Shown here: positions 2,321 through 14,836 of the stretch, piece after piece
How the letters are laid out: every line of letters begins with the position of its first letter
Position numbering within the stretch: position 1 is the first letter of the stretch
Assembly (NCBI RefSeq): GCF_044324785.1
Contig: NZ_CP172127.1
Length of the DNA stretch: 64,000 nt
Source of the DNA: Escherichia coli
GTDB lineage: Bacteria > Pseudomonadota > Gammaproteobacteria > Enterobacterales > Enterobacteriaceae
Reading direction: 5' to 3' (one strand)
Position numbers and translations under genes: made by a program
Notes under the pieces: model-generated
Told to the model about the DNA's origin: nothing
Databases searched by the model: none
Seen by the model: the letters and a program-made list of their open reading frames with translations, nothing else

Positions 2321-3505
2321 TTAACTTTCCCGGCTGGAGAGTGAATCAATGTAATCAGCGTACCATTGCATCATTTCACGGCGGCCATCGAGATACAGGG
2401 CATGATTATAGGTACCCCTGATGGAATTTTTATCCACATGAGCTAACTGCATTTCAATCCAGGCAGAATTAAAGCCCTGTTCGTGCAGAATGGTACTCAT
2501 GGTGTGACGAAAACCATGACCGGTTGCCCTGCCATCGTAACCGATACGTTTGAGCACCATATTGATGCTGGCTTCGCTCATTGGCTTGTTGATATCACAA
2601 CGTCCCGGAAAAACCAGCCGGTATTGCCCGGAGAAAGTTTTGAGCTGCAGCAGAATGTCAGTGGCCTGTCGTGACAGTGGTACGACATGTTTACGTCGCA
2701 TTTTCATGCGGCTTTCAGGGATTGTCCACAGTGCATTATCAAAATCAATTTCTGACCATTCAGCGGACCGTAGCTCAATGGTTCTGAGACCTGTCAGAAG
2801 CAGCAGATTTGTCGCCATGCGGGTAACAGGACTGCCATGATACTCAGCGAGCTTCCGGAGAAAAACAGGGAGCTCATCTGCTCTCAGGTGGGGGAAATGT
2901 GCAGCTTTTGGCGCCGCCAGCGTACTGGTCAGTTCAGATGCCGGATTGACAGTGGCTCGTCCGGTGGCGATGGCATAACGAAAAATCTGATTACAGTATT
3001 GACGCACCTTACGAAGTTTTTCCAGCGAGCCACGTTTTTCTATGCGGCGCAGAATTTCCAGCATTTCCAGCGGGAGGATATCCGTAACGCTTCGTTTGCC
3101 CAGATACGGGAAAATATCTTTATCCAGCGCTTCCAGTACGCTTCTGGCGTAACTTTCAGACCATGACAAAGATTTATGCTGGTGCCATTCCGTAGCGAGG
3201 GCATGGAACGTATTGGTGGCAGAGATTTTCTGAGTGAGTTTTTCCTTTCGCTTCTTTTCGCCCGGGTCACCACCTTCGGAGATGATTTTTCGGGCATCGT
3301 CGCGTTTGATTCTGGCCTCAGCAAGGGAGACGTCGGGATAGACGCCGAGGGCCAGTTTTTTCTCTTTTCCTGCTATCCGGTATTTAAGCCGCCAGTAGCG
3401 GGCACCCGTGGTTTTTACCAGCAGATATAAACCACGTTCGTCAGAGAGTTTATAGTCTTTTTCTTTAGGTCTGGCTGTTTCGACCTGTCTGGCTGTAAGT
3501 GCCAT
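2321..3505 (-). CDS. Tyrosine recombinase, P4-type phage/island integrase
   Basis: N-terminus MALTARQVETARPKEKDYKLSDERGLYLLV typical of P4-like integrases; C-terminal catalytic region with HGFRHT...R...Y; start set at ATG 3505 (MALTAR), not the longer track ORF; lies 177 bp from a tRNA-Phe 3' fragment. Confidence 0.85.
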   Translation of the reverse strand: MALTARQVETARPKEKDYKLSDERGLYLLVKTTGARYWRLKYRIAGKEKKLALGVYPDVSLAEARIKRDDARKIISEGGDPGEKKRKEKLTQKISATNTFHALATEWHQHKSLSWSESYARSVLEALDKDIFPYLGKRSVTDILPLEMLEILRRIEKRGSLEKLRKVRQYCNQIFRYAIATGRATVNPASELTSTLAAPKAAHFPHLRADELPVFLRKLAEYHGSPVTRMATNLLLLTGLRTIELRSAEWSEIDFDNALWTIPESRMKMRRKHVVPLSRQATDILLQLKTFSGQYRLVFPGRCDINKPMSEASINMVLKRIGYDGRATGHGFRHTMSTILHEQGFNSAWIEMQLAHVDKNSIRGTYNHALYLDGRREMMQWYADYIDSLSSRES

Positions 3506-3569
3506 ATGGGGGCTCCTGAAACTGACTGAACACAATGAGCCCCCACCGGGGCCCCCAATGAACGCTTGA

Positions 3570-3665
3570 TTGAGAGAGAGTTCAGTAGAGTCTGGTGGAG
3601 TTCAGAATGTTCAGATTGCTTGTAACGATGTGATTATACTTGAGTTTCGTGGAGTTCGGGAGATG
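3570..3665. promoter_or_regulatory. Cluster of short GGAGTTC(A/G)G direct repeats between integrase and tRNA-derived core; candidate arm-type integrase binding sites
   Basis: gagagttcag, tggagttcag, tgttcaga, tggagttcggg within ~100 bp; interpretation is inference. Confidence 0.3.
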
Positions 3666-3681
3666 AATCTGGAAGTGAAAG

Positions 3682-3734
3682 TGGTGCCCGGACTCGGAAT
3701 CGAACCAAGGACACGGGGATTTTCAATCCCCGTG
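3682..3734 (-). repeat. 3' fragment of tRNA-Phe (anticodon stem to CCA) = attachment-site direct repeat / island junction
   Basis: Reverse complement reads GGGGATTGAAAATCCCCGTGTCCTTGGTTCGATTCCGAGTCCGGGCACCA, identical to the 3' ~49 nt of E. coli tRNA-Phe (recall); the 5' half of the tRNA is absent, so not a functional tRNA gene. Confidence 0.75.
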
Positions 3735-3782
3735 CCATAATTGGCTGTGTCAGTTGGTTACACACCATTGAGGTGTGTACTA

Positions 3783-4661
3783 ATGAAAATACTGCCCGTT
3801 GTCTCCACAAAAGGTGGCGAAGGTAAATCAACACAATCCGCAAACCTGGCTGGTTTTCTCGCCGATGCAGGTATCCGTACCCTGCTGATTGACGGAGATC
3901 ATGCTCAGCCCACGGCAAGCAACATCTTTCCGCTGACATATGAAGCGTCAGCCGGTCTTTTTGAGTTGCTGATGCGCACGGCTGACCTCAGTCATCCCGA
4001 TAACATCATTTCCCGCACGGCTATCGACGGACTCGATCTGATAGTCTCCAATGACCCTCATGAGCAGTTAAAAACTGCGATGCTTCACGCCCCGGATGGT
4101 CGTCTGCGCCTCCGGAATGTCCTGCAGCATCCGCTTTTTCTGAACAACTACGATGTCATTGTAGTTGATTCTCAGGGAGCACGTTCTGTCATGCTCGAAA
4201 TGATTATGCTGTCGGCCACTGATTCGGTTGTCGGGATGGTCAATCCGGTACTCCCTGATGTGCGCGAGTTTATTCGGGGCACTGTCAATGTTATGGAGAA
4301 CCTGCTGCCTTACCGGGAGCTGGGGATACCCCTGCCGAAAGTACGCACGCTGGTTAACTGCATGGATTATACGGCACTGGCCAGGAAGACGCTGGATGAG
4401 CTGGCCGGAATTATTCAGACCGGTCGTTACAGCAGACAGTTACCTGAAGGTGCGGTTTCCCTTCTTTCCACACAGATTTACGACCTGAATATTTACAAGC
4501 AGGGGCATGCGGCTGGTCAACCCGTACATCGTCTCGAAAAAGAATCCACACGTCGCAGTGATTCCGCGCTTGTCACGATGCACAGCCTGGCCTGTGAACT
4601 CTTTCCTGAGTGGAAACAGGCGTTTGACGGGCTGCTGGCGAACGGGGGAATACGTCAGTGA
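3783..4661 (+). CDS. ParA/Soj-family partition ATPase
   Basis: MKILPVVSTKGGEGKST deviant Walker A (KGGxGKS/T); first gene inside the ICE next to att repeat as in PAPI-1/SPI-7-type elements (recall); start chosen at ATG 3783. Confidence 0.85.
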   Translation: MKILPVVSTKGGEGKSTQSANLAGFLADAGIRTLLIDGDHAQPTASNIFPLTYEASAGLFELLMRTADLSHPDNIISRTAIDGLDLIVSNDPHEQLKTAMLHAPDGRLRLRNVLQHPLFLNNYDVIVVDSQGARSVMLEMIMLSATDSVVGMVNPVLPDVREFIRGTVNVMENLLPYRELGIPLPKVRTLVNCMDYTALARKTLDELAGIIQTGRYSRQLPEGAVSLLSTQIYDLNIYKQGHAAGQPVHRLEKESTRRSDSALVTMHSLACELFPEWKQAFDGLLANGGIRQ

Positions 4662-4749
4662 TTCAGGTTAAGCGAGAACCATGCAGCTCCGTTACCCTGG
4701 CTTATGGACGTTATCAATACCGGACAATATGACGAGAAGGATTAACCCT

Positions 4750-5244
4750 ATGAATAACAGCAGCAATACCACAACCCGTAATACGCTTTCACCCGTTGAG
4801 TCAGCCTGTCATGCCTTACTGGATTTTATTGCCCGGGAAGTTTTTGAGAATAAAGCACCGGAAGAGGACGTCAGGGAACGTTGCAAAGTATTTACAGCGC
4901 TGCTTAACGAAGGATTTAAAGCCCTGCTTGATGAGGCAGGGCTGAATCTGTCAAACCTTCGTAAACAGTGTGAGGAACTGGAATCTCAGATAACCAGACT
5001 TGATTCTCAGTCCGATGCTATTTGTCGCAGAGGTGCTCAAATTGAACGCTTCATTGGTCACCATTTACCTTTTTTCGATTTGAACAAAGTTTTTGATACT
5101 GCCAGTCAGTCATGTGAACCAGCGCCTTCTCCGGCTCAGTCGGCTGTGTCCAGTAGTCAGCCCAGTAATCTGTCAGAGCAAGGGACATCTCAGCGGGTGT
5201 CATCTGTTCAACCGTTGCAGGGAGCCAGTGATGTTGATGAATAA
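4750..5244 (+). CDS. Hypothetical protein (helical N-terminal part, S/Q/P-rich tail)
   Basis: ATG 4750 preceded by AGAAGGA; tail overlaps a convergent minus-strand ORF, so 3' portion uncertain. Confidence 0.4.
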   Translation: MNNSSNTTTRNTLSPVESACHALLDFIAREVFENKAPEEDVRERCKVFTALLNEGFKALLDEAGLNLSNLRKQCEELESQITRLDSQSDAICRRGAQIERFIGHHLPFFDLNKVFDTASQSCEPAPSPAQSAVSSSQPSNLSEQGTSQRVSSVQPLQGASDVDE

Positions 5245-5527
5245 GAGCAAACTTAACGGCTTGTTGAACGCTGATACTGTTATCGTCCAGAAAAAACCAG
5301 CGGCGGCTGTTAATCAGCCAGTGTCCGAGCCAGCAAAGTCGGTAAGCGAGCTTCCGGTCAGCTCCGGGAAAGATTTCTGTTCCCTGGTCAAAGAAGGTTT
5401 TGCACCGTTCCACATCGTCGGTGCTCATACCTCCGACTTTCCAGTTTTCATAATATTTTGCCATGTTGCCATCCTCATCATGGTTGTTATCAATGCCGGA
5501 CGGCAGTTGCTGATGATTTGTGTTCAT
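5051..5527 (-). CDS. Hypothetical Trp-rich protein, antisense to the parA-dnaB operon direction
   Basis: Protein-like composition (…DYWADYWTQPTEPEKALVHMTDWQYQKL…); start chosen at MNTNHQQ; the same-region plus frame is hydrophobic low-complexity. Confidence 0.45.
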   Translation of the reverse strand: MNTNHQQLPSGIDNNHDEDGNMAKYYENWKVGGMSTDDVERCKTFFDQGTEIFPGADRKLAYRLCWLGHWLINSRRWFFLDDNSISVQQAVKFALIHQHHWLPATVEQMTPAEMSLALTDYWADYWTQPTEPEKALVHMTDWQYQKLCSNRKKVNGDQ

Positions 5528-5735
5528 AAGGTATTTCTCTTCGTAAACATGTTGATTATGAGCGCAAATATGCTGTACGTACCTTCTGACCGGGGTCGGC
5601 AAACTTACCGGTCGGAAAATGTACAGACAGTTATGGGCCTTTTATGCCCTGCAACTGTTCGTCCGGCACCCGTTTTCGTTTTTTTGCATGGTGGGTTTGC
5701 TGTGAAACAGGCTCCGTTTGCCCGGGAGGTGGCGT

Positions 5736-7124
5736 ATGTCTGAACGCTATATTCCACGCTCCGTTGATGCAGAGCAGGCCGTGCTGGGCGGCCTGATGCT
5801 CGATAATGAACGCTGGGATGAGGTGGTACTGATGCTCCGGGGGGAGGATTTTTCTCTGGCCGCACACCGGGTGATATTCCGCACCATGTCAGAGCTGGCA
5901 ACCAGCGGTCAGCCGTTCGACCTCATCACGCTGAGTGAGCATATTGAGAAAACAAACAATATTGAGGCACTGGGTGGTTTCGCTTATCTGGCTGAACTCA
6001 GCAAAAATACGCCTTCTGCAGCCAATATTATCGCTTATGCCCGTATTGTTGCTGAAAAGAGCATGCTGCGTCAGTTGCAGGAGACGGGGAATGCGCTGAT
6101 TACGGATGTGGCCGCACCGGATGCGACACCACGCACTGTTCTTGAATCCGCTGAACGTCGGCTCTTTTCACTTTCACAGACTGGCATGTTGCATGAGCGA
6201 TGTGAAGTCAGTCTCACCTCGGCTATGGAGCTGGCGCTGCGTCAACTGGAAGAGGGACTGAACGCCGGCGGGATGACGGGCACGCCCACGGGATTTGATG
6301 AACTGGATAAGATGACCTGTGGTCTGCAGCCCGGCGACCTCATTCTTCTGGCTGCACGCCCGTCTATGGGGAAAACAGCGCTGGGCCTTACCTTCTGTCT
6401 TAATGCCCTGTGTAACCGGACCGATGAAACGGTATTTCTTTTCAGTATCGAAATGTCCCGGGAGCAGCTGATTCTGCGTGTCCTGTCAATGCTCTCCAGG
6501 GTGGAGCTGACACGTCTTCGCAGCAGCATGATGAATGATGAAGAGTGGGCGAGAGTCACGGCAACCATGGGACGCTTCATGAATGAAGCGTCATTCATCG
6601 GAGATGGAAACCGCCTGATAATTGATGACACCTCCTTCCAGACGCCGTCATCGCTGCGTGCCAGCGCCCGTCGTTATGTCCGTCTGTATGGCAGACCTTC
6701 CCTGATAATGGTTGATTACCTCCAGCTGATTCGTTCTCCGGACCAGGAGAACCGAACGCAGGAAATTGCGGAAATATCCCGCGCCCTTAAGGCGTTAGGT
6801 AAAGAGCTGGGATGCCCGGTACTGGCACTGTCTCAGCTTAACCGTCAGGTGGAGCAGCGGGCGGATAAGCGCCCCAATAACGGTGACCTGCGTGATTCCG
6901 GGGCGCTGGAGCAGGATGCTGACCTCATTATGTTTATTTACCGTGATGAGGTTTATAACTCTGGCACGCTGGATAAGGGCGTTGCTGAAATCATTGTGAG
7001 CAAACAGCGGCAGGGGCCAACCGGAACGATACGGGTGAACTTCGACGGCCGCTACACCCTGTTTTCACCGTTTGAACGTGGATGGAATTTTGACCGTGCC
7101 GGAGGAAATGCGTATGTCAATTAA
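5736..7124 (+). CDS. DnaB-like replicative DNA helicase
   Basis: N-terminal DnaB domain (AEQAVLGGLMLDN), Walker A ARPSMGKTALGLTF, Walker B IMVDYLQL; SD GGGAGGTGG before ATG 5736. Confidence 0.9.
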   Translation: MSERYIPRSVDAEQAVLGGLMLDNERWDEVVLMLRGEDFSLAAHRVIFRTMSELATSGQPFDLITLSEHIEKTNNIEALGGFAYLAELSKNTPSAANIIAYARIVAEKSMLRQLQETGNALITDVAAPDATPRTVLESAERRLFSLSQTGMLHERCEVSLTSAMELALRQLEEGLNAGGMTGTPTGFDELDKMTCGLQPGDLILLAARPSMGKTALGLTFCLNALCNRTDETVFLFSIEMSREQLILRVLSMLSRVELTRLRSSMMNDEEWARVTATMGRFMNEASFIGDGNRLIIDDTSFQTPSSLRASARRYVRLYGRPSLIMVDYLQLIRSPDQENRTQEIAEISRALKALGKELGCPVLALSQLNRQVEQRADKRPNNGDLRDSGALEQDADLIMFIYRDEVYNSGTLDKGVAEIIVSKQRQGPTGTIRVNFDGRYTLFSPFERGWNFDRAGGNAYVN

Positions 7125-8766
7125 ACGAAATCATTCCGTTGATCTGGGAGCTGCCATCATGCAACCGGGCCGTCAGGCCAGCACGACGGGTAACGTGGTG
7201 GCGCTGGGGGAAACACCGATGATTCTGACGCTGGATCAACTGCGCCCCAACCCGGATAACCCGAGGACCACGCGTAATCCCCGGTACGACGATATTAAAA
7301 GTTCAATTTTCTCCCGTGGACTGGATACGGTGCCCAAAGTCACCCGGATACCTGAGAGTGAGCCGGATATCTATATTTTCAGCGATGGTGGTAACACGCG
7401 ATATCAGATCCTGAAAGAGCTGTGGGAGGAGACCGGCGATCAGCGTTTCTATCGTATTCATGTGCTTTTCAAGCCATGGCCGGGACGGCTTCAGTGCGTC
7501 ATTGGTCACCTGGCTGAGAATGAAGTCAGGGGCGAACTGACGTTTATTGAAAAGGCCCGGGGTATCCATAACGCCCGGATGATTTATGAGGAGTCGATGC
7601 AGCGAACCGTGACGATCAGGGAACTGGCGTCACTGCTGACGGATGAAGGACTTCCGGTAAGCCACTCATCTGTCAGCAGGATGGAGCATACTCTGAAATA
7701 TCTGTATCCGTGGATCCCCGATCTTCTGGAATCAGGATTAGGAAGACCGCAGATCAATTCACTGTTGTCTCTCCGGCAGGATGCGGAACGCATCTGGGGA
7801 CAGTTTGCGGTGGCAACAGAGAACGGGGCGGATTTTGACCGCGTGTTTGGTGAATGCTGCAGCAAATTCAATTCACCGGAGCTCTGGTCACTGGAGATGT
7901 TCCGGGATGAGCTGATTGGTGATCTGCTGAAAGCGTTACCACATCCGGTGCTGGATTATGACCGCTGGTTGCTTGAACTGGATCCGCGGGAGCGTAACCG
8001 ACGTCACCATTTTGGCGAACCTGAGCCGGTGCTCATTCCCGCAGACAGTGATGCGATGCCAGAGCCTGCGACTGACGGTGTGTCGGCAGTGACGGCGGAG
8101 AAGAACAGCGGAAGGGAGCAGTCTGTGATTTCCGCACCGGCTGACCATGACACCGTCATGAATACGGAGCAATCCCCGGCTGGAAAGGCGGAGAGTTCAG
8201 TTATCGAACAACGCGAAGAACGCCGTAGAAAGGAAGTCCAGCCGGATATGTATGGTGGTGAAGAAACATACAGCGGCGATTACGAAGAGGATGGCGATAC
8301 CCGTGATGCTGCGGATCTGCCGGTAACGTCACCGGAAGAGGGGGCTCAGCAGAGCAGCGGTGAAATATTCAGTGAGCCGGTATTCAGTGTTGGTGAACTG
8401 GATGATATCGAATATCTGCAGAATGAGGCATTTCACCTGGCATGGGAGCTGGCGTCACACACAGGCTGTGTCGATGAGCTGGCTATGGACAGGGAAAGCG
8501 AACTGTCTGCGGGATTCGGCGCGGCAGAGGCGAATTGTTCTCCGGTCATGGCATTTCTTGTCAGACTGACCGGTGAGGAGGTTCTGCGGGTCAATCCGGT
8601 TTCCCTTGATGCACTGCTGATAGGCGGCAGTACTGAAGAAGACCTGCCGTTGCTTGATGATGAACATGCAGGAAAGTTGCTTCGCCTGCTGGGTGTGTTG
8701 CGTCGTCTGCGGGGGCTGCAGCGTATGGTGGAAGACGAGAGTGAGGAAGGGCGCGATGAATGCTGA
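7114..8766 (+). CDS. ParB-like nuclease-domain protein with acidic C-terminal region
   Basis: N-terminal ParB/Srx-like domain (LTLDQLRPNPDNPR...); SD GGAGGAA before ATG 7114; overlaps dnaB-like stop by 11 nt. Confidence 0.8.
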   Translation: MSIKRNHSVDLGAAIMQPGRQASTTGNVVALGETPMILTLDQLRPNPDNPRTTRNPRYDDIKSSIFSRGLDTVPKVTRIPESEPDIYIFSDGGNTRYQILKELWEETGDQRFYRIHVLFKPWPGRLQCVIGHLAENEVRGELTFIEKARGIHNARMIYEESMQRTVTIRELASLLTDEGLPVSHSSVSRMEHTLKYLYPWIPDLLESGLGRPQINSLLSLRQDAERIWGQFAVATENGADFDRVFGECCSKFNSPELWSLEMFRDELIGDLLKALPHPVLDYDRWLLELDPRERNRRHHFGEPEPVLIPADSDAMPEPATDGVSAVTAEKNSGREQSVISAPADHDTVMNTEQSPAGKAESSVIEQREERRRKEVQPDMYGGEETYSGDYEEDGDTRDAADLPVTSPEEGAQQSSGEIFSEPVFSVGELDDIEYLQNEAFHLAWELASHTGCVDELAMDRESELSAGFGAAEANCSPVMAFLVRLTGEEVLRVNPVSLDALLIGGSTEEDLPLLDDEHAGKLLRLLGVLRRLRGLQRMVEDESEEGRDEC

Positions 8767-9487
8767 TGCCGCACGTCAGGATCAACTGATTAAACGGATA
8801 AGAAAACTGCTGGCGCTGAGCCGGAATAACAGTAACCCCCATGAGGCAGGCCAGGCACTTTCCCGTGCTCAGGCGCTGATGCGCAAGCACGGTATCACTG
8901 AACTGGATACTGATATTTCGGTGATAAAGACCTCGTCATCAAAGGGGGCCCCGTCAGAAGCGGAAAAAGTTCCGGTATGGATGGGGCGCCTTATGCATGT
9001 TGTTGCAGAGGCATTCGGATGCCATACATACCTGGACTGGCGTATCACAACCGGAAGGTACTGGCGGCGGGTTGTCATATTTTATGGCTTTGGGGAGCGC
9101 CCGGTTGTGGCGGCGTATGCCTTTGATGTTCTCTGCCGGCAGATGCAAAAGGCAACAAAGGCGTATCTTTCAACCCAGAGCCGGACATTAAAATTGTCAA
9201 CCCGAAGGGCAAGAGCAGCCATGTTTCGTGACGGCTGGGTTTATGGGGTGCGTGATGTGGTGGATGCATTCCCGCTCACGGAAGATGAGACGCGTGTAAT
9301 GAAGACGTGGCTGAAGAGACAGCAATTTGAGGGAATGGCTGCCTTCCGGAATGTTAAGGACTGTAATGGTGGTGATCGTGCACGCTGGCAGGGATACAAC
9401 GAGGGGAAAAAGGCAACGCTGAATCACGGTGTTGGTTCCCGGGATCTGAGACCGGAAAGCCTGATATCGGGCGGAGGTGAGGTATGA
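8756..9487 (+). CDS. Conserved ICE protein, DUF2786-like N-terminus
   Basis: MNADAARQDQLIKRIRKLLALSRNNSNPHEAGQALSRAQALMRKHGI; SD GAGGAAGG before ATG 8756; family by recall. Confidence 0.65.
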   Translation: MNADAARQDQLIKRIRKLLALSRNNSNPHEAGQALSRAQALMRKHGITELDTDISVIKTSSSKGAPSEAEKVPVWMGRLMHVVAEAFGCHTYLDWRITTGRYWRRVVIFYGFGERPVVAAYAFDVLCRQMQKATKAYLSTQSRTLKLSTRRARAAMFRDGWVYGVRDVVDAFPLTEDETRVMKTWLKRQQFEGMAAFRNVKDCNGGDRARWQGYNEGKKATLNHGVGSRDLRPESLISGGGEV

Positions 9488-10062
9488 GTAACAACTTATC
9501 ACAGGCCACCAACGGGCTGTTGATGCAACTGGTGATGGATCTCAAGAGTGGCTATCTGCGGCGATGTGAAGCGCTGGGGCTTTCCCGGGAAGAAATGCAG
9601 ATGCTGCAGGGGCTGAGCATTGAAGAAATTCACTATCTGTCAAATTCAGAAGTGTCGGTGCTGCGGCTGGATATTAACCACAACAATCTTGTGCGCATGT
9701 TGCAGCAGGCGCGGACTGAACAGAAACGTCTGCAGCGAATCGATCGCGCTCTGGCGCTGGGTGGGTCTATCGAACTCATGGCGTTTTATTTTGGTCTTTC
9801 CAGCGTGGATGTGGCTGCGCGGCGTCGTATCTCCGGTATTGATGTTCGTCCCGGAAGGGGGATCACCCTGAGTGACGATGAGAATTCTGAACTCTGGCGG
9901 TTGTGGCAGAAAGCCGGGATCAATGATGTGGAGAGTGTGGATGGGCTGGATGTCATGATGCTTTGTGCTGAACAGATGAACATTCCACTGACGGCCATCT
10001 GGCATGCCGTCAGAGGGTGGCATACAACCGGAAATCCGGATCAGGTAAGGAGTGCGTCATGA
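9484..10062 (+). CDS. Conserved ICE hypothetical protein (SPI-7-type replication/regulatory region protein)
   Basis: 192-aa ORF translationally coupled to flanking genes; family by recall. Confidence 0.65.
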   Translation: MSNNLSQATNGLLMQLVMDLKSGYLRRCEALGLSREEMQMLQGLSIEEIHYLSNSEVSVLRLDINHNNLVRMLQQARTEQKRLQRIDRALALGGSIELMAFYFGLSSVDVAARRRISGIDVRPGRGITLSDDENSELWRLWQKAGINDVESVDGLDVMMLCAEQMNIPLTAIWHAVRGWHTTGNPDQVRSAS

Positions 10063-10307
10063 AGATGACAGAACTGGTTCCCGGAGTGCTGACAAGTCCG
10101 GGCGTCCCTCCCACCAGTCAGCGTAAGGCGGTTGAACTGGTCAATCGCTTCCGTCGTGGAGAGCGGAATTATCATGAACTGAAGGAAAGGGGATTTGGTT
10201 ATTTCAAGATTGATGTTGGTCCTGGCTGGCGGTTACTGAGCCGGAATAAAGGGCTGACCTGGGCCCTGTTGAGTCATGAACGATACAACAACATGAGACT
10301 GAAGTGA
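10059..10307 (+). CDS. Small protein, weak RelE/ParE-toxin-like C-terminal pattern
   Basis: SD AAGGAG before ATG 10059; ...GYFKIDVGPGWRLLSRNKGLTWALLSHERYNN resembles RelE/ParE fold signature only loosely. Confidence 0.5.
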   Translation: MKMTELVPGVLTSPGVPPTSQRKAVELVNRFRRGERNYHELKERGFGYFKIDVGPGWRLLSRNKGLTWALLSHERYNNMRLK

Positions 10308-10316
10308 GGTGGAAAG

Positions 10317-10574
10317 ATGAGTAATGCAGCAAGACTCCAGCTGGGTTTTTCTCCGTTTTCAAAAACTATCGTGCTGGCAAAAATGCGTAATCTTGACGAC
10401 GGAACCAGTCTTCGTGTCGGTAATGATCCCGGTCGCGATGTAACCAATGAGGCGGCTCAGCTTGTCTGGCATCTGGTCATGGCAGAAGGTGGTGAAATTA
10501 TGTGGGAAATGGACGATGGCTCCCGCATGGTGCTGAAGGCTGAAAGTCAGGAGGCAACCAGTGAGCAAGATTAA
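10317..10574 (+). CDS. Hypothetical protein
   Basis: 85-aa ORF in tightly packed same-strand cluster. Confidence 0.45.
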   Translation: MSNAARLQLGFSPFSKTIVLAKMRNLDDGTSLRVGNDPGRDVTNEAAQLVWHLVMAEGGEIMWEMDDGSRMVLKAESQEATSEQD

Positions 10575-10776
10575 CTACCAGGCACTGCGTGAGGCGGCAG
10601 AGAAAGCACCGTGGGGAGACTGGGACTCATATAAACCGCACCGTGGCGCACGAGGTTATGAGGTCCGACTAAGTAAGACGAGTGAGGTTGACGGGGTGTT
10701 GCGGGGTGATGGGGCACAGTTGTTGCAAAAAGCCCAGCGCGGCGCAAAACCGCTGGAAAAACCACTTGCGCACTAA
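10561..10776 (+). CDS. Hypothetical protein
   Basis: 71-aa ORF overlapping neighbours in operon-like arrangement. Confidence 0.45.
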   Translation: MSKINYQALREAAEKAPWGDWDSYKPHRGARGYEVRLSKTSEVDGVLRGDGAQLLQKAQRGAKPLEKPLAH

Positions 10777-10787
10777 AGGAGATTGAT

Positions 10788-11153
10788 ATGGCACTGACGA
10801 AAAAACAACGTGCAGAACTGCGCATGAAGTTCGGCGGTCGCTGCGCTTATTGCGGCTGCGAGCTTGGCGAAAAGTGGCATGCAGACCATGTAAAACCGGT
10901 CATTCGTTTTGCTGGAAATATGCTTCACCAGGACCGTGACGATATATCCAACATGGTTCCGGCATGCCACCCATGCAATCTGCACAAGCATTGCAGTAGC
11001 CTGGAAGATTATCGGCGAATTATCAGTGATGGTCGTCGTGAATTCCTTGCGTCCGGGAAAGGCAAGGCGCTGGTTCGTATGGGATTGGTTGAAATGAAAT
11101 CTGACCCGGTTGTGTTCTGGTTTGAAAAATATCAAGAAGGGGCTACGGCATGA
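10788..11153 (+). CDS. HNH endonuclease
   Basis: CAYCGCELGEKWHADHVKPV ... VPACHPCNLHKH: Cys-box plus His-Asn-His motif. Confidence 0.8.
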   Translation: MALTKKQRAELRMKFGGRCAYCGCELGEKWHADHVKPVIRFAGNMLHQDRDDISNMVPACHPCNLHKHCSSLEDYRRIISDGRREFLASGKGKALVRMGLVEMKSDPVVFWFEKYQEGATA

Positions 11154-11536
11154 CCACTATTACCAAAGAGCGACTGCTGACAATCAAACAGTGGCGCGAA
11201 ACATACGGACCGGGTAGCAACGTTGTCCTTCCAGCAGAAGAAGCGGAAGAACTGGCACGAATTGCTCTGGCATCGCTGGAAGCAAAACCAATAGGTGCAT
11301 TCCACATTGCAGAACAGCAAGTTGACGGCACAAGTGACTACCTCAAGGATGGAGAATGGCCTATTGATAATGGAATTATTGAGGTCTACGCCGCTCCCCC
11401 CGTTCCAGTAGTACCGGAAGAAAAACCAATGCCTAATCCTCTTAGCATGTACGCGGTCGATGCTGTTGCCGCTATTGCAGAGGTGAGAGGCTGGAACGCC
11501 TGTCGTGCCGCCATGCTTCATGGTAAAGGAGAGTGA
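11150..11536 (+). CDS. Hypothetical protein (paralogous N-terminus with 11744-12250)
   Basis: MTTITKERLL...RIALASLEAKP shared with downstream ORF. Confidence 0.55.
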   Translation: MTTITKERLLTIKQWRETYGPGSNVVLPAEEAEELARIALASLEAKPIGAFHIAEQQVDGTSDYLKDGEWPIDNGIIEVYAAPPVPVVPEEKPMPNPLSMYAVDAVAAIAEVRGWNACRAAMLHGKGE

Positions 11537-11537
11537 T

Positions 11538-11747
11538 ATGGCTATTGCCGCAAGTTACACAATGCATCTCTATTGTGACTGCCGCCAGTGTACGGAAGGT
11601 GTATATCCAGTGCCAGACTTCGGTGAGTATATAGGTACGTCATGGGCTGGCTGTGCAAAAGAGGCGCGCAAGGATGGCTGGCGAATAAGCAAAGACAAAA
11701 CACGTGCTTTTGCGCCAGGGCATAAAGTTTTAAGGATTAACAAATGA
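11538..11747 (+). CDS. Small Cys-rich protein (possible zinc-binding)
   Basis: SD AAGGAG before ATG 11538; HLYCDCRQC...C motif. Confidence 0.5.
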   Translation: MAIAASYTMHLYCDCRQCTEGVYPVPDFGEYIGTSWAGCAKEARKDGWRISKDKTRAFAPGHKVLRINK

Positions 11748-12250
11748 CCACTATTACCAGAGAAAACGCGGAAATTAAATCATTCATCACTGGTTTCCTG
11801 AGCGACGCGGCGCACGATAAACAATCGTCAAACAGCCTGCTTGCCAATGTGTTTCGTATCGCACTGGCATCACTGGAAGCAGAGCCAGTTGCGTGGCGAT
11901 ATCGCTACGTGAAAAAAGGCGTTACGGACTCTCAGGGGGAGTCGTGGGTTGGTGACTGGAAATATGTACCGACAAAAGAGGATTGCAACGACAGACCGAA
12001 CTATGAAATTCAGGCGTTATTCACGGCTCAGCCTGTGCCACTGACACAAGAAGTGTTGAATCTGGAGAAGGCCAGGATGCAGTTGCGTGTTTTGTTATCT
12101 GGACCTGTTCCTGCAATCACTCCGATGGCGCATGCCGTGGCAATAAAAGTTGTGCTTGATGCTCTGGATGCGAGTGAGCGGAGGGTGGCTGAACTGGAAC
12201 AGGTCTGCACTGCCGCGGGTATTCGTATCAAAGGGGAACAAGTGAAATGA
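11744..12250 (+). CDS. Hypothetical protein (paralogous N-terminus with 11150-11536)
   Basis: MTTITRENAE...RIALASLEAEP. Confidence 0.55.
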   Translation: MTTITRENAEIKSFITGFLSDAAHDKQSSNSLLANVFRIALASLEAEPVAWRYRYVKKGVTDSQGESWVGDWKYVPTKEDCNDRPNYEIQALFTAQPVPLTQEVLNLEKARMQLRVLLSGPVPAITPMAHAVAIKVVLDALDASERRVAELEQVCTAAGIRIKGEQVK

Positions 12251-12257
12251 ACTGAAA

Positions 12258-12467
12258 ATGCAGACAATTTCGGGTCCTGTGATTATCGACAGTAATGAGG
12301 TGACACAGTTTTACCCGGACCATGAAAGTGGAGGGGAACTCACCGCTGTTGAGTACCTTGCTGACGGGGGAAGAATCACCGCGAGGGTGAGGCACTCTTT
12401 TTATCAGGTTGCTGCGGCACTTGCCGGGGCATGGCGTGCGGATGATGCATCAAAAAGCGGTGGGTGA
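12258..12467 (+). CDS. Hypothetical protein
   Basis: 69-aa ORF ending the small-gene cluster. Confidence 0.4.
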   Translation: MQTISGPVIIDSNEVTQFYPDHESGGELTAVEYLADGGRITARVRHSFYQVAAALAGAWRADDASKSGG

Positions 12468-12728
12468 GGACTGTGCCGGAATGATTGTCTGTTCCGAAGC
12501 TGCTGAGCCGCGACATAAATTTTTTATGTTGCGGTGAAGCAGCCGACAAACGAAGTGCGTCAGCGTGCTGGTTATTAAGGCAATATTTTTTCAGAGGAAC
12601 CGCAATACCGTCGGTATTAACGGTTTACGGGTAATGAAGTGTTTAGCCTGCATCTTTGCCGGGTGCAGTTATAAGCATTTCGGAAACCGTTCCCCGGCGC
12701 AGTCTGCCGGGATTTAAGGAGTTTATTT

Positions 12729-13994
12729 ATGGCGCTACCTGCAGAAAGCCTTATTGCGCATACGCTCAGAAAAATGAAGGCCAGCATGGCAGAGAAAGCC
12801 AGTCGTGAGGACGGGAGGATACGCAGTGGGCTGTTGTTTACCGGCAATGTTCACGATTCGTATCCCCGCAGGCTGTTGCTGGATACGCGCCTTTCTCCCC
12901 TTGATAAAACTGCGTGGATGATGATTCGTCTGCATGCCCTGAATAATGAGGGCGCAGTATTTCCGACGTACGATGAACTGCAGTTACAACTGGCATCTCC
13001 CGGGCGCGGGAAGGCGTCCCGTGAAACAGTGAGCCGGGTGCTGACAATGCTGCGGCTTACGGGCTGGCTGAGTCTGTGTAAGCGGGTCAGGGATGAAAAA
13101 GGGCGGGTCCGGGGGAATATTTACGCCCTGCATGATGAGCCACTGACCTGCTGTGATGCAGAAAAGTTTGACCCACGATACCTGGATATGGTTCTGGATA
13201 CTGTGAGCAGGAGCCGGAACAAGACAATCCGGCACACAGCCAGTGAAGTGCTCAGTGATATCAAAAATGAGCCCGGTATGCGGCATTACCACAGCCATAT
13301 CACTCTGTTTGAATCGCGTATGGGGGCAGCACAGACACCTGGTCAGCTGGCGGCGCGTCAGCGGGTGAACCCGATGGTGAATGAAAACACAGGCAGAGAG
13401 AGTGGTTCGGATTCCGTACATACCCCTGCACCTGTCGTGCAGGTAACCGAACTCAGTGCTCCGTTAACCGAACTCAGTGAAAAACAGGAAATGAGCCCAC
13501 TCAGTTCGGATTCCGTACTTCCTGAAAAATCAGTAACTTATCACTCGGTTCGGAAACCGAACAATTACGTACGTAATATCACACACAGTGTGATTAAAAA
13601 TACGTACGTATTGCCTGAGTCGGTGAAATCGCAAATCAGCGCAGAAGACACGGACATGCTGACAAAACAACTGCAGGCGTTGCCGGAAGAACTGGCAGGT
13701 AGTGTGCTGAGCAGCCTGTTACAGATGCTCAGCAAAAACACGCTCCAGAATCCGGTTGGCTGGATGCTGGCTGTGATGAAACTTGCGCGTGAGGGACGTT
13801 TTAATACGCCGGATATGTCCGTGCATGAATCCCGGTCGCCAGCCCGTGCACCATATCAGCCTGTGTACAACCGTGATGAACGTGAACGTCGTCGCGGGAA
13901 AGTGGCGTCACCTGAAACGGTGAGCAACATTGTCGCAGAATTCCGGGCCAGCCTGAAACGTGCAAATGCTGCCCGTCTGGCGGCGCGTGTGTGA
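12729..13994 (+). CDS. Putative ICE replication initiator (winged-helix Rep-like; SPI-7 STY4528-type family by recall)
   Basis: SD AAGGAG before ATG 12729; N-terminal HTH/winged-helix-like segment; internal peptide repeats coincide with DNA repeats/palindromes; followed immediately by a 36-bp tandem array. Confidence 0.7.
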   Translation: MALPAESLIAHTLRKMKASMAEKASREDGRIRSGLLFTGNVHDSYPRRLLLDTRLSPLDKTAWMMIRLHALNNEGAVFPTYDELQLQLASPGRGKASRETVSRVLTMLRLTGWLSLCKRVRDEKGRVRGNIYALHDEPLTCCDAEKFDPRYLDMVLDTVSRSRNKTIRHTASEVLSDIKNEPGMRHYHSHITLFESRMGAAQTPGQLAARQRVNPMVNENTGRESGSDSVHTPAPVVQVTELSAPLTELSEKQEMSPLSSDSVLPEKSVTYHSVRKPNNYVRNITHSVIKNTYVLPESVKSQISAEDTDMLTKQLQALPEELAGSVLSSLLQMLSKNTLQNPVGWMLAVMKLAREGRFNTPDMSVHESRSPARAPYQPVYNRDERERRRGKVASPETVSNIVAEFRASLKRANAARLAARV

Positions 13995-14008
13995 TGGTTA
14001 AAAGTCAA

Positions 14009-14836
14009 TCTATGGCGCTACTGGCACCATAGTACAAAAAATGAGCGATGGTGCCACTGACACCACGGTATAAAAAATGAGCGATGGTGACGCTGGCACC
14101 ATAGTACAAAAAATAAGCGATGGTGCCACTGGCACCATAGTACAAAAAATGAGCGATGGTGCCACTGGCACCACGGTATAAAAAATGAGCGATGGTGCCA
14201 CTGGCACCACGGTACAAAAAATAAGCGATGGTGCCACTGGCACCACGGTATAAAAAATGAGCGATGGTGCCACTGGCACCACGGTACAAAAAATAAGCGA
14301 TGGTGCCACTGGCACCACGGTACAAAAAATAAGCGATGGTGCCACTGGCACCACGGTACAAAAAACGAACGATGGTGCCACTGGCACCATAGTACAAAAA
14401 ATAAGCGATGGTGCCACTGGCACCACGGTACAAAAAATAAGCGATGGTGCCACTGGCACCACGGTACAAAAAACGAACGATGGTGCCACTGGCACCATAG
14501 TACAAAAAATAAGCGATGGTGCCACTGGCACCATAGTACAAAAAATAAGCGATGGTGCCACTGGCACCACGGTACAAAAAATAAGCGATGGTGCCACTGG
14601 CACCATAGTACAAAAAATGAGCGATGGTGCCACTGGCACCACGGTATAAAAAATGAGCGATGGTGCCACTGGCACCACGGTACAAAAAATAAGCGATGGT
14701 GCCACTGGCACCATAGTACAAAAAATGAGCGATGGTGCCACTGGCACCACGGTATAAAAAATGAGCGATGGTGACGCTGGCACCATAGTACAAAAAATAA
14801 GCGATGGTGCCACTGGCACCATAGTATAAAAACGAA
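14009..14836. repeat. Tandem array of ~22-23 copies of a 36-bp unit, each containing a 17-19-bp palindrome (A)TGGTGCCACTGGCACCA(T) plus an A-rich spacer
   Basis: Directly visible periodicity of 36 bp across ~830 bp with minor unit variants (cggtac/tagtac, ataa/atga/acgaa, gtgacgctg). Confidence 0.95.

Follow-up and report, generated by a model that had tools for sequence, protein, structure and literature searches.

A predicted RelE/ParE-fold protein in an SPI-7/ICEclc-type element of Escherichia coli is probably a lone accessory protein and not half of an addiction module

Gene content at the left end of the element

The window analyzed here, a stretch of 64,000 nucleotides from an Escherichia coli contig (NZ_CP172127.1), contains the left end of an integrative conjugative element (ICE) of the SPI-7/ICEclc type. 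The genes follow each other in the order integrase, ParA, two small ORFs, 'SPI-7-type island replicative DNA helicase', ParB-family, DUF2786/DUF7168 and DUF2857, and continue with an 82-aa ORF, DUF7446, a phage-like block, STY4528-family, PFL_4669-family, topoisomerase III, SSB and PilL. The 82-aa ORF, referred to here as ParE_like after its Pfam family, lies inside a same-strand array that extends in the RefSeq annotation from parA through the STY4528-family gene. No sigma-70-like promoter was detected on the plus strand when positions 3000-14500 were scanned with a consensus. A 3.5-kb query covering positions 9000-12500 was 100% identical to the chromosome of E. coli O2:K1:H5 APEC E19035, and the RefSeq annotation of this identical record lists the CDS of ParE_like as WP_000784286.1, 'ParE family toxin-like protein'. 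The features surrounding the ORF are given in Table 1.

Table 1. Positions of ParE_like and of the features around it in the window
Feature	Position	Strand	Evidence
ParB-family gene, counterpart of ICEclc BisD (equivalence inferred)	7072..8766; RefSeq start 7114	+	RefSeq of identical record
DUF2857 gene, family of ICEclc BisC and STY4526/YPO1902	9484..10062	+	Pfam DUF2857 8.7e-66, weak FlhD match
Shine-Dalgarno AAGGAG, 6 nt 5' of the ParE_like ATG	10047..10052	+	read from sequence
ParE_like gene, 82 aa, PF24732 / phrog_1525, solitary protein of predicted RelE/ParE fold	10059..10307	+	
DUF7446 gene, 85 aa, phrog_1578, pI 4.6	10317..10574	+	Pfam 1.7e-15; phrog_1578 2e-31
Rest of phage-like insert: Ead/Ea22-like fragment, HNH endonuclease, small ORFs	10561..12467	+	Pfam Ead_Ea22, HNH; RefSeq pseudogene fragments
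STY4528-family island replication protein gene	12729..13994	+	NCBIfam NF040582, 1.1e-115

In ICEclc, BisD is the subunit with a ParB domain and BisC the DUF2857/FlhC-like subunit, and together they form BisDC, the master activator of transfer competence (PMC7423338). The ParB-family and DUF2857 genes of the window (7072-10062) appear to be the counterparts of bisD and bisC, which encode this bistable activator. The DUF2786/DUF7168 gene at 8756-9487 separates the bisD-like from the bisC-like gene, at a place where one further locus of the family has a gene of the TraR zinc-finger type instead. From the NCBIfam names of the neighbours (STY4526/YPO1902 on a DUF2857 fragment, and STY4528), we infer that ParE_like is the ortholog of STY4527.

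The 82-aa ORF as a gene

The initial annotation, made from the sequence alone, had described an 82-aa product encoded at 10059-10307, a 4-nt overlap (ATGA) with the upstream gene and an 85-aa ORF further on, and each of these was recovered when the sequence was read again. The ORF starts with ATG at 10059-10061 and stops at 10305-10307, and its 82-aa product reads MKMTELVPGV...GYFKIDVGPGWRLLSRNKGLTWALLSHERYNNMRLK. The upstream ORF (9484-10062) terminates with TGA at 10060-10062 and thus overlaps the start of ParE_like, while the 85-aa ORF at 10317-10574 lies on the same strand after a gap of 9 nt. The Shine-Dalgarno sequence in Table 1 represents a strong ribosome-binding site, and similar motifs (AAGGA/GGAGG) were found 5' of the ParE_like orthologs in ICE loci.

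Comparison with the ortholog in E. coli 5CRE51 gave a dS of 0.55 and a dN of 0.064 (dN/dS 0.12). ICE-type loci of Citrobacter, Pantoea, Erwinia, Serratia, Morganella, Xenorhabdus and Brenneria carry homologs (50-58% identity) at the corresponding place. Judged from its sequence, the ORF has not arisen by chance but is a real gene that looks expressed and is under purifying selection.

Family and predicted fold of ParE_like

A Pfam scan placed ParE_like in PF24732, the 'ParE_like toxin domain', with 62.0 bits against a gathering score of 24.4 (E = 5.3e-17). Residues 21-78 were aligned with profile positions 4-67 of 67, which represents the full domain, and the scan returned no other Pfam family at E <= 1. 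In PHROGs, the protein was assigned to phrog_1525 (7.9e-19), for which the function entry reads unknown. ParE_like is a full member of PF24732 and phrog_1525 and shows no difference from them; the family itself is uncharacterised, and a search for published work on PF24732, STY4527, phrog_1525 or 'ParE family toxin-like' found none. The identity of the protein is in this sense already known from public annotation, both from Pfam (ParE_like) and from the RefSeq name.

When 1.84 billion cluster representatives were searched exhaustively with phmmer, only 36 relatives were returned, and the family is therefore small. In an alignment of 34 cluster representatives, R58 was invariant, whereas A24, W57, S61, G65, W68, H73 and Y76 were conserved in at least 90%; the family consensus is G..WRLLS...G..W.LMSHE.YN. 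This pattern points to a putative functional site that is kept throughout the family. All 35 representatives tested were very basic, with a median pI for the family of 10.7, the same value as for ParE_like. In ParE, the inhibition of DNA gyrase depends on the C-terminal segment; the C-terminus of ParE_like extends 5 residues beyond the HERYNN motif.

AlphaFold2 (AF2) prediction with the family alignment resulted in a confident model (pLDDT 89.6, pTM 0.76). It begins with a beta hairpin (residues 4-12) and a helix (18-32), which are followed by three strands (49-54, 57-61 and 68-72) and a C-terminal helix (73-81). Foldseek searches with this model reached probabilities as high as 0.99, although the E-values were marginal (0.014 or more) and the TM-scores were ~0.5. 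Among the viral structures in BFVD, the only good matches were named 'ParE-like toxin domain-containing protein' (TM 0.72-0.83), and they included proteins of the jumbo lytic phage RaK2 and Yersinia phage fHe-Yen9-04. At the level of the fold, the model has the features of the RelE/ParE superfamily, i.e. N-terminal helices on an antiparallel beta-sheet that can be superposed on solved toxins. It differs from the toxins of this superfamily in having one N-terminal helix instead of two and a shorter domain of ~65 residues.

At the sequence level, on the other hand, canonical superfamily models such as TIGR02683 did not recognise ParE_like, which scored 14 bits with TIGR02683 against a cut-off of 62.85. 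Neither the protein nor the family profile retrieved a toxin from the sequences in PDB, and the only matches were chance ones to TFIIB and histones. When the family profile was compared by hhalign with E. coli RelE, RK2 ParE and YoeB, the probabilities were below 1%, and no residue-level equivalence to canonical toxins can be claimed. ParE_like thus lacks a significant sequence-profile link to RelE, YoeB, YafQ, HigB and ParE. In ribosome-dependent mRNA interferases of the RelE type, catalytic basic and aromatic residues lie on the face of the sheet and at the C-terminus, examples being R61, R81 and Y87 in RelE and E46, R65, H83 and Y84 in YoeB. In the AF2 model, the conserved R58, H73 and Y76 of ParE_like are located in strand 3 and just past strand 4, and their likeness to a catalytic set is one of motifs compared by eye only. 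PADLOC returned no match for ParE_like or for DUF7446, and ParE_like matched no anti-defence family.

Despite the missing sequence link to canonical toxins, the Pfam assignment, the AF2 model and the structure matches support a placement of ParE_like as a distant, shortened relative within the predicted RelE/ParE fold. The initial annotation had seen a loose resemblance of the C-terminus to RelE/ParE-fold toxins. This resemblance holds for the fold, as indicated by a profile-HMM score above the gathering score of PF24732, by the structure prediction, which did yield a RelE/ParE fold, and by the BFVD matches; it does not extend to the canonical sequence profiles (TIGR02683, hhalign and PDB).

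Synteny across related ICEs

Thirteen ICE loci with ParE_like were examined, including the window's own record (L016), and a single-protein scan of genome contigs with ParE_like yielded only 7 loci. In 11 related SPI-7-type ICE loci, ParE_like is situated directly between the DUF2857 gene and the STY4528-family gene, with a gap of 75-140 nt to the latter. The ATGA overlap between the DUF2857 stop and the ParE_like start is kept in nine ICE loci, down to ~50% protein identity, and by this overlap the two genes are translationally coupled in this lineage. ParE_like is absent from ICEHin1056, pKLC102 and a Klebsiella pneumoniae element (DUF2857 54% identical), in which DUF2857 is directly followed by STY4528. 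The next gene on the 3' side is usually that of the STY4528 family, both after ParE_like and, in elements that lack it, after DUF2857. By this gene order, ParE_like belongs to the accessory genes of SPI-7/ICEclc-type ICEs; one enterobacterial sub-clade of them carries it, exactly at the DUF2857/STY4528 junction.

Comparison of the ICE with that of E. coli 5CRE51 revealed a mosaic, with flanks of at least 99% identity around a divergent block at ~8590-10225 (77-96% identity, dS 0.2-0.75). The block comprises DUF2786 and DUF2857 together with the initial two-thirds of ParE_like, in which it ends at ~10225. A second, short divergent patch was observed at ~7500-7800, within the ParB-family gene. 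An argument for separate histories of ParE_like and DUF7446 based on this comparison was dropped, because the divergent block ends within ParE_like.

DUF7446 and the phage-like insert

DUF7446 was found in 2 of the 13 ICE loci with ParE_like, those of this element and of strain 5CRE51, and is absent from the remaining 11. In both E. coli elements it heads a phage-like insert of ~2.1 kb with an Ead/Ea22 fragment, an HNH gene and small ORFs, and within the set of ICE loci such a block between ParE_like and the STY4528-family gene was confined to the E. coli elements L001 and L016. Homologs of DUF7446 formed 332 clusters at 90% identity and are much more widely spread than those of ParE_like. In seven lambdoid prophage places, DUF7446 was located in the early-left operon, between the recombination/CIII genes and the integrase, and had no ParE_like neighbour. 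Phage records with DUF7446 numbered 21 and those with ParE_like 65, and in the one record shared among the matches listed, the two genes are 9 kb apart. The proteins encoded 3' of ParE_like in other elements were not DUF7446.

ParE_like and DUF7446 were also modelled as a fusion with a (GGGGS)6 linker and a block MSA. The pTM was 0.42 and the DUF7446 part was poorly folded (pLDDT 47-72), which is only a weak negative for a complex because the MSA of DUF7446 was shallow. By the distribution described above, DUF7446 is an accessory gene of lambdoid-phage early-left operons and no conserved partner of ParE_like.

A cryptic homology between ParE_like and DUF7446, tried on the basis of a MAFFT alignment, was rejected as chance (hhalign probability 0.8%, E = 0.068, 15 columns). 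A hairpin-like motif, W-x-L-[LV]-x4-G-x2-3-W-x-[LM], is common to DUF7446 (10317-10571) and ParE_like (10059-10304), most likely by chance. The whole phage-like block at 10317-12467 is absent from 11 related ICE loci. As homologs of ParE_like occur in lambdoid early-left operons too, the ParE_like gene of the ICE may have served as a recombination anchor for this block. Within the block, the HNH endonuclease of 121 aa at 10788-11153 showed weak, sub-threshold matches to PtuB/retron-type HNH effectors and to the HNH region of IscB; it is probably a generic phage HNH.

Relatives of ParE_like outside ICEs

Genomic contexts of ParE_like were sampled in ~20 cases. In an F-like tra operon, the order of genes was TraV-TraR-103 aa-X-112 aa, in which X is a relative of ParE_like. 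In a phage/plasmid region, a relative follows a Lar-type protein, and a methylase and an AcrIF11-like gene are present there as well. Two arrangements were seen in P2-like early operons: in one, the relative is flanked by an Rv2179c-like exonuclease and the primase, and in the other by the Dam and Dcm methyltransferases. Further relatives were found in lambdoid early-left (pL) operons, in a Murrayvirus and in the jumbo lytic phage RaK2.

None of the small proteins flanking ParE_like in these other contexts contained an antitoxin-type Pfam domain, and by Pfam the flanking proteins are mutually unrelated. In the contexts sampled, co-occurrence with DUF2857 was restricted to the one ICE sub-clade. 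Across these contexts, the neighbours of ParE_like differ by element type and no adjacent cognate antitoxin is co-conserved with it, so that the feature that defines a type II toxin-antitoxin (TA) module is missing. For the relative in RaK2, plasmid-style addiction would make no sense, because RaK2 is a lytic phage.

Comparison with known toxin-family genes

ParE_like differs from the toxins of the RelE/ParE superfamily not only in its structure. No conserved adjacent antitoxin was found for it, and it appears to be located in long operons and not in an autoregulated bicistron.

A closer parallel is found in Shi of ICEclc, a small overlapping ORF in the parA-shi-parB operon, some homologs of which carry a HicA_toxin domain with no HicB (PMC6812849). 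Shi together with ParA arrests the growth of transfer-competent cells, whereas Shi alone is not toxic, and shi is absent from SPI-7 (PMC6812849). Like ParE_like, Shi is small (~85 aa) and overlaps its neighbours in the partition/regulatory operon of an ICE, and the two ICEs are of the same broad family. Each protein is related to a type II toxin domain and is without the cognate antitoxin. Growth arrest of transfer-competent cells is, by this analogy, a plausible shared function. The two proteins are not homologous: Shi is HicA-like and ParE_like has a RelE/ParE-like predicted fold, and in the Pfam scan ParE_like matched its own family alone, which gives no homology to Shi or the HicA_toxin domain. 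Their positions also differ, with shi between parA and parB and ParE_like after the bisC-like gene.

TA modules borne by ICEs have been described for SXT (MosAT; PMC2654960) and for tfs4 of Helicobacter pylori (a TA system of the YafQ family; PMC7584586). They resemble ParE_like as toxin-family genes on an ICE, and the tfs4 toxin is from the same superfamily; they are reported as two-gene systems, whereas no conserved partner of ParE_like was found.

Alternative explanations and proposed role

The initial annotation had suggested that a real toxin would form an addiction module in the maintenance region of the ICE, and the neighbouring 85-aa ORF was considered as its other half. Such a type II module would consist of a ParE_like toxin and an acidic DUF7446 antitoxin in the toxin-first order of HigBA. 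The two genes are indeed neighbours on one strand with 9 nt between them, encode a basic/acidic pair (pI 10.7 and 4.6), and ParE_like has the toxin fold. We nevertheless find this module highly improbable and the suggestion unsupported, because DUF7446 is missing from 11 of the 13 ICE loci, has no ParE_like neighbour in the seven lambdoid prophage places, lies 9 kb away in the one shared phage record among the matches listed, and is not what other elements encode 3' of ParE_like. The pTM of the fusion (0.42) is a further, weak negative, the consensus scan of 3000-14500 (+) found no dedicated promoter, and no other conserved partner emerged. An overlap of stop and start codons is the usual arrangement in RelBE and ParDE operons, and the ATGA overlap, kept in nine ICE loci to ~50% protein identity, directs attention to the gene on the other side. 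In an antitoxin-first, TA-like pair, the BisC-like DUF2857 protein would bind and neutralise or regulate ParE_like, and ParE_like would thereby be a modulatory third subunit of, or a brake on, the BisDC-type master activator. This would agree with the divergent recombination block that the 5' two-thirds of ParE_like shares with DUF2857 in the comparison with 5CRE51, and with BisC being at work in a DNA-binding activator complex (PMC7423338). However, BisDC alone activates its target promoters in ICEclc (PMC7423338), most of the non-ICE contexts of ParE_like examined are without DUF2857, and DUF2857 is found without ParE_like in ICEHin1056, pKLC102 and the Klebsiella element; we consider such a pair improbable.

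It is also conceivable, though rather unlikely in our judgement, that the RelE/ParE fold has been domesticated into a non-toxic protein, for instance one that counters defence or restriction, or one that binds nucleic acids and helps incoming DNA to become established. The phage and plasmid neighbours, among them Lar restriction alleviation, Dam and Dcm methyltransferases and the AcrIF11-like gene, would suit such a role, as would the presence in lytic jumbo phages and the scores below cut-off on canonical toxin models. Opposed to it are the lack of any match in PADLOC or to anti-defence families, and the conserved polar set of R, H and Y, which together with the high pI resembles RNA-binding sites of the RelE type.

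The reading that we prefer is that ParE_like probably serves a mobile element as a lone accessory protein and is not part of a classic addiction module. That it is a member of a RelE/ParE-fold family without a cognate antitoxin we regard as very probable. The full picture, in which this solitary toxin-fold accessory protein is co-expressed with the ICE activation operon and acts as a host modulator and not as an addiction toxin, seems to us evenly balanced between right and wrong. A specific role in growth arrest or host modulation, taken by itself, is argued by analogy and is tentative, possible but on the doubtful side.

According to this preferred reading, ParE_like would be made only while the activation/partition operon of the ICE is on, and elsewhere while the equivalent operon is on, i.e. 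the early lytic operon of a phage or the tra operon of an F-like plasmid. The protein would then bind a host target associated with nucleic acids, which could be the ribosome/mRNA, as for RelE, or gyrase, as for ParE. In this way it might slow or redirect the physiology of the host during the active phase of the element (growth arrest or host shut-off). A modulator of host physiology appears likelier than a post-segregational killer because all contexts sampled are active-phase operons and the family includes members in strictly lytic phages. Several points weigh against the preferred reading: the proposed host role comes from context and analogy only; a sequence-profile link to canonical RelE, YoeB and ParE is missing; the ATGA coupling to DUF2857 is typical also of an antitoxin-first TA pair; and the contexts sampled number ~20.

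Carried further, PF24732 could be seen as a family of antitoxin-less RelE/ParE-fold effectors that are on only in the active phase. In SPI-7-type ICEs, the effector would be slaved in its translation to the BisC-like subunit. The amount of a toxin that arrests growth or reprograms translation would then be set directly by the bistable switch in the small subpopulation of transfer-competent cells, in convergence with Shi through another fold. This is speculation, and we think it unlikely to hold in full.

What the present analysis adds is that ParE_like does not look like one half of a TA pair: it is solitary, coupled to the BisC-like gene in one ICE sub-clade, and scattered singly in phage and plasmid operons. 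If it should prove to be a factor for growth arrest or host takeover that is wired to the bistability switch of the ICE, it would be the SPI-7-type counterpart of ICEclc Shi. Such a finding would represent a second case of orphan TA toxins repurposed by mobile elements.

A repeat array downstream of the STY4528-family gene

A tandem array was observed at 14012-14832, beginning 18 nt past the stop codon of the gene for the STY4528-family 'island replication protein'. The array contains 22.8 copies of a 36-bp unit with 91% matches, and within each unit a palindrome that is nearly perfect, GTGGTGCCAGTGGCACCAT, precedes a T-rich tail. The array is open in several frames on both strands, and RefSeq has a 'hypothetical protein' on the minus strand there. 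From its structure, the array looks more like repeats of the iteron, origin or centromere type than like a gene.
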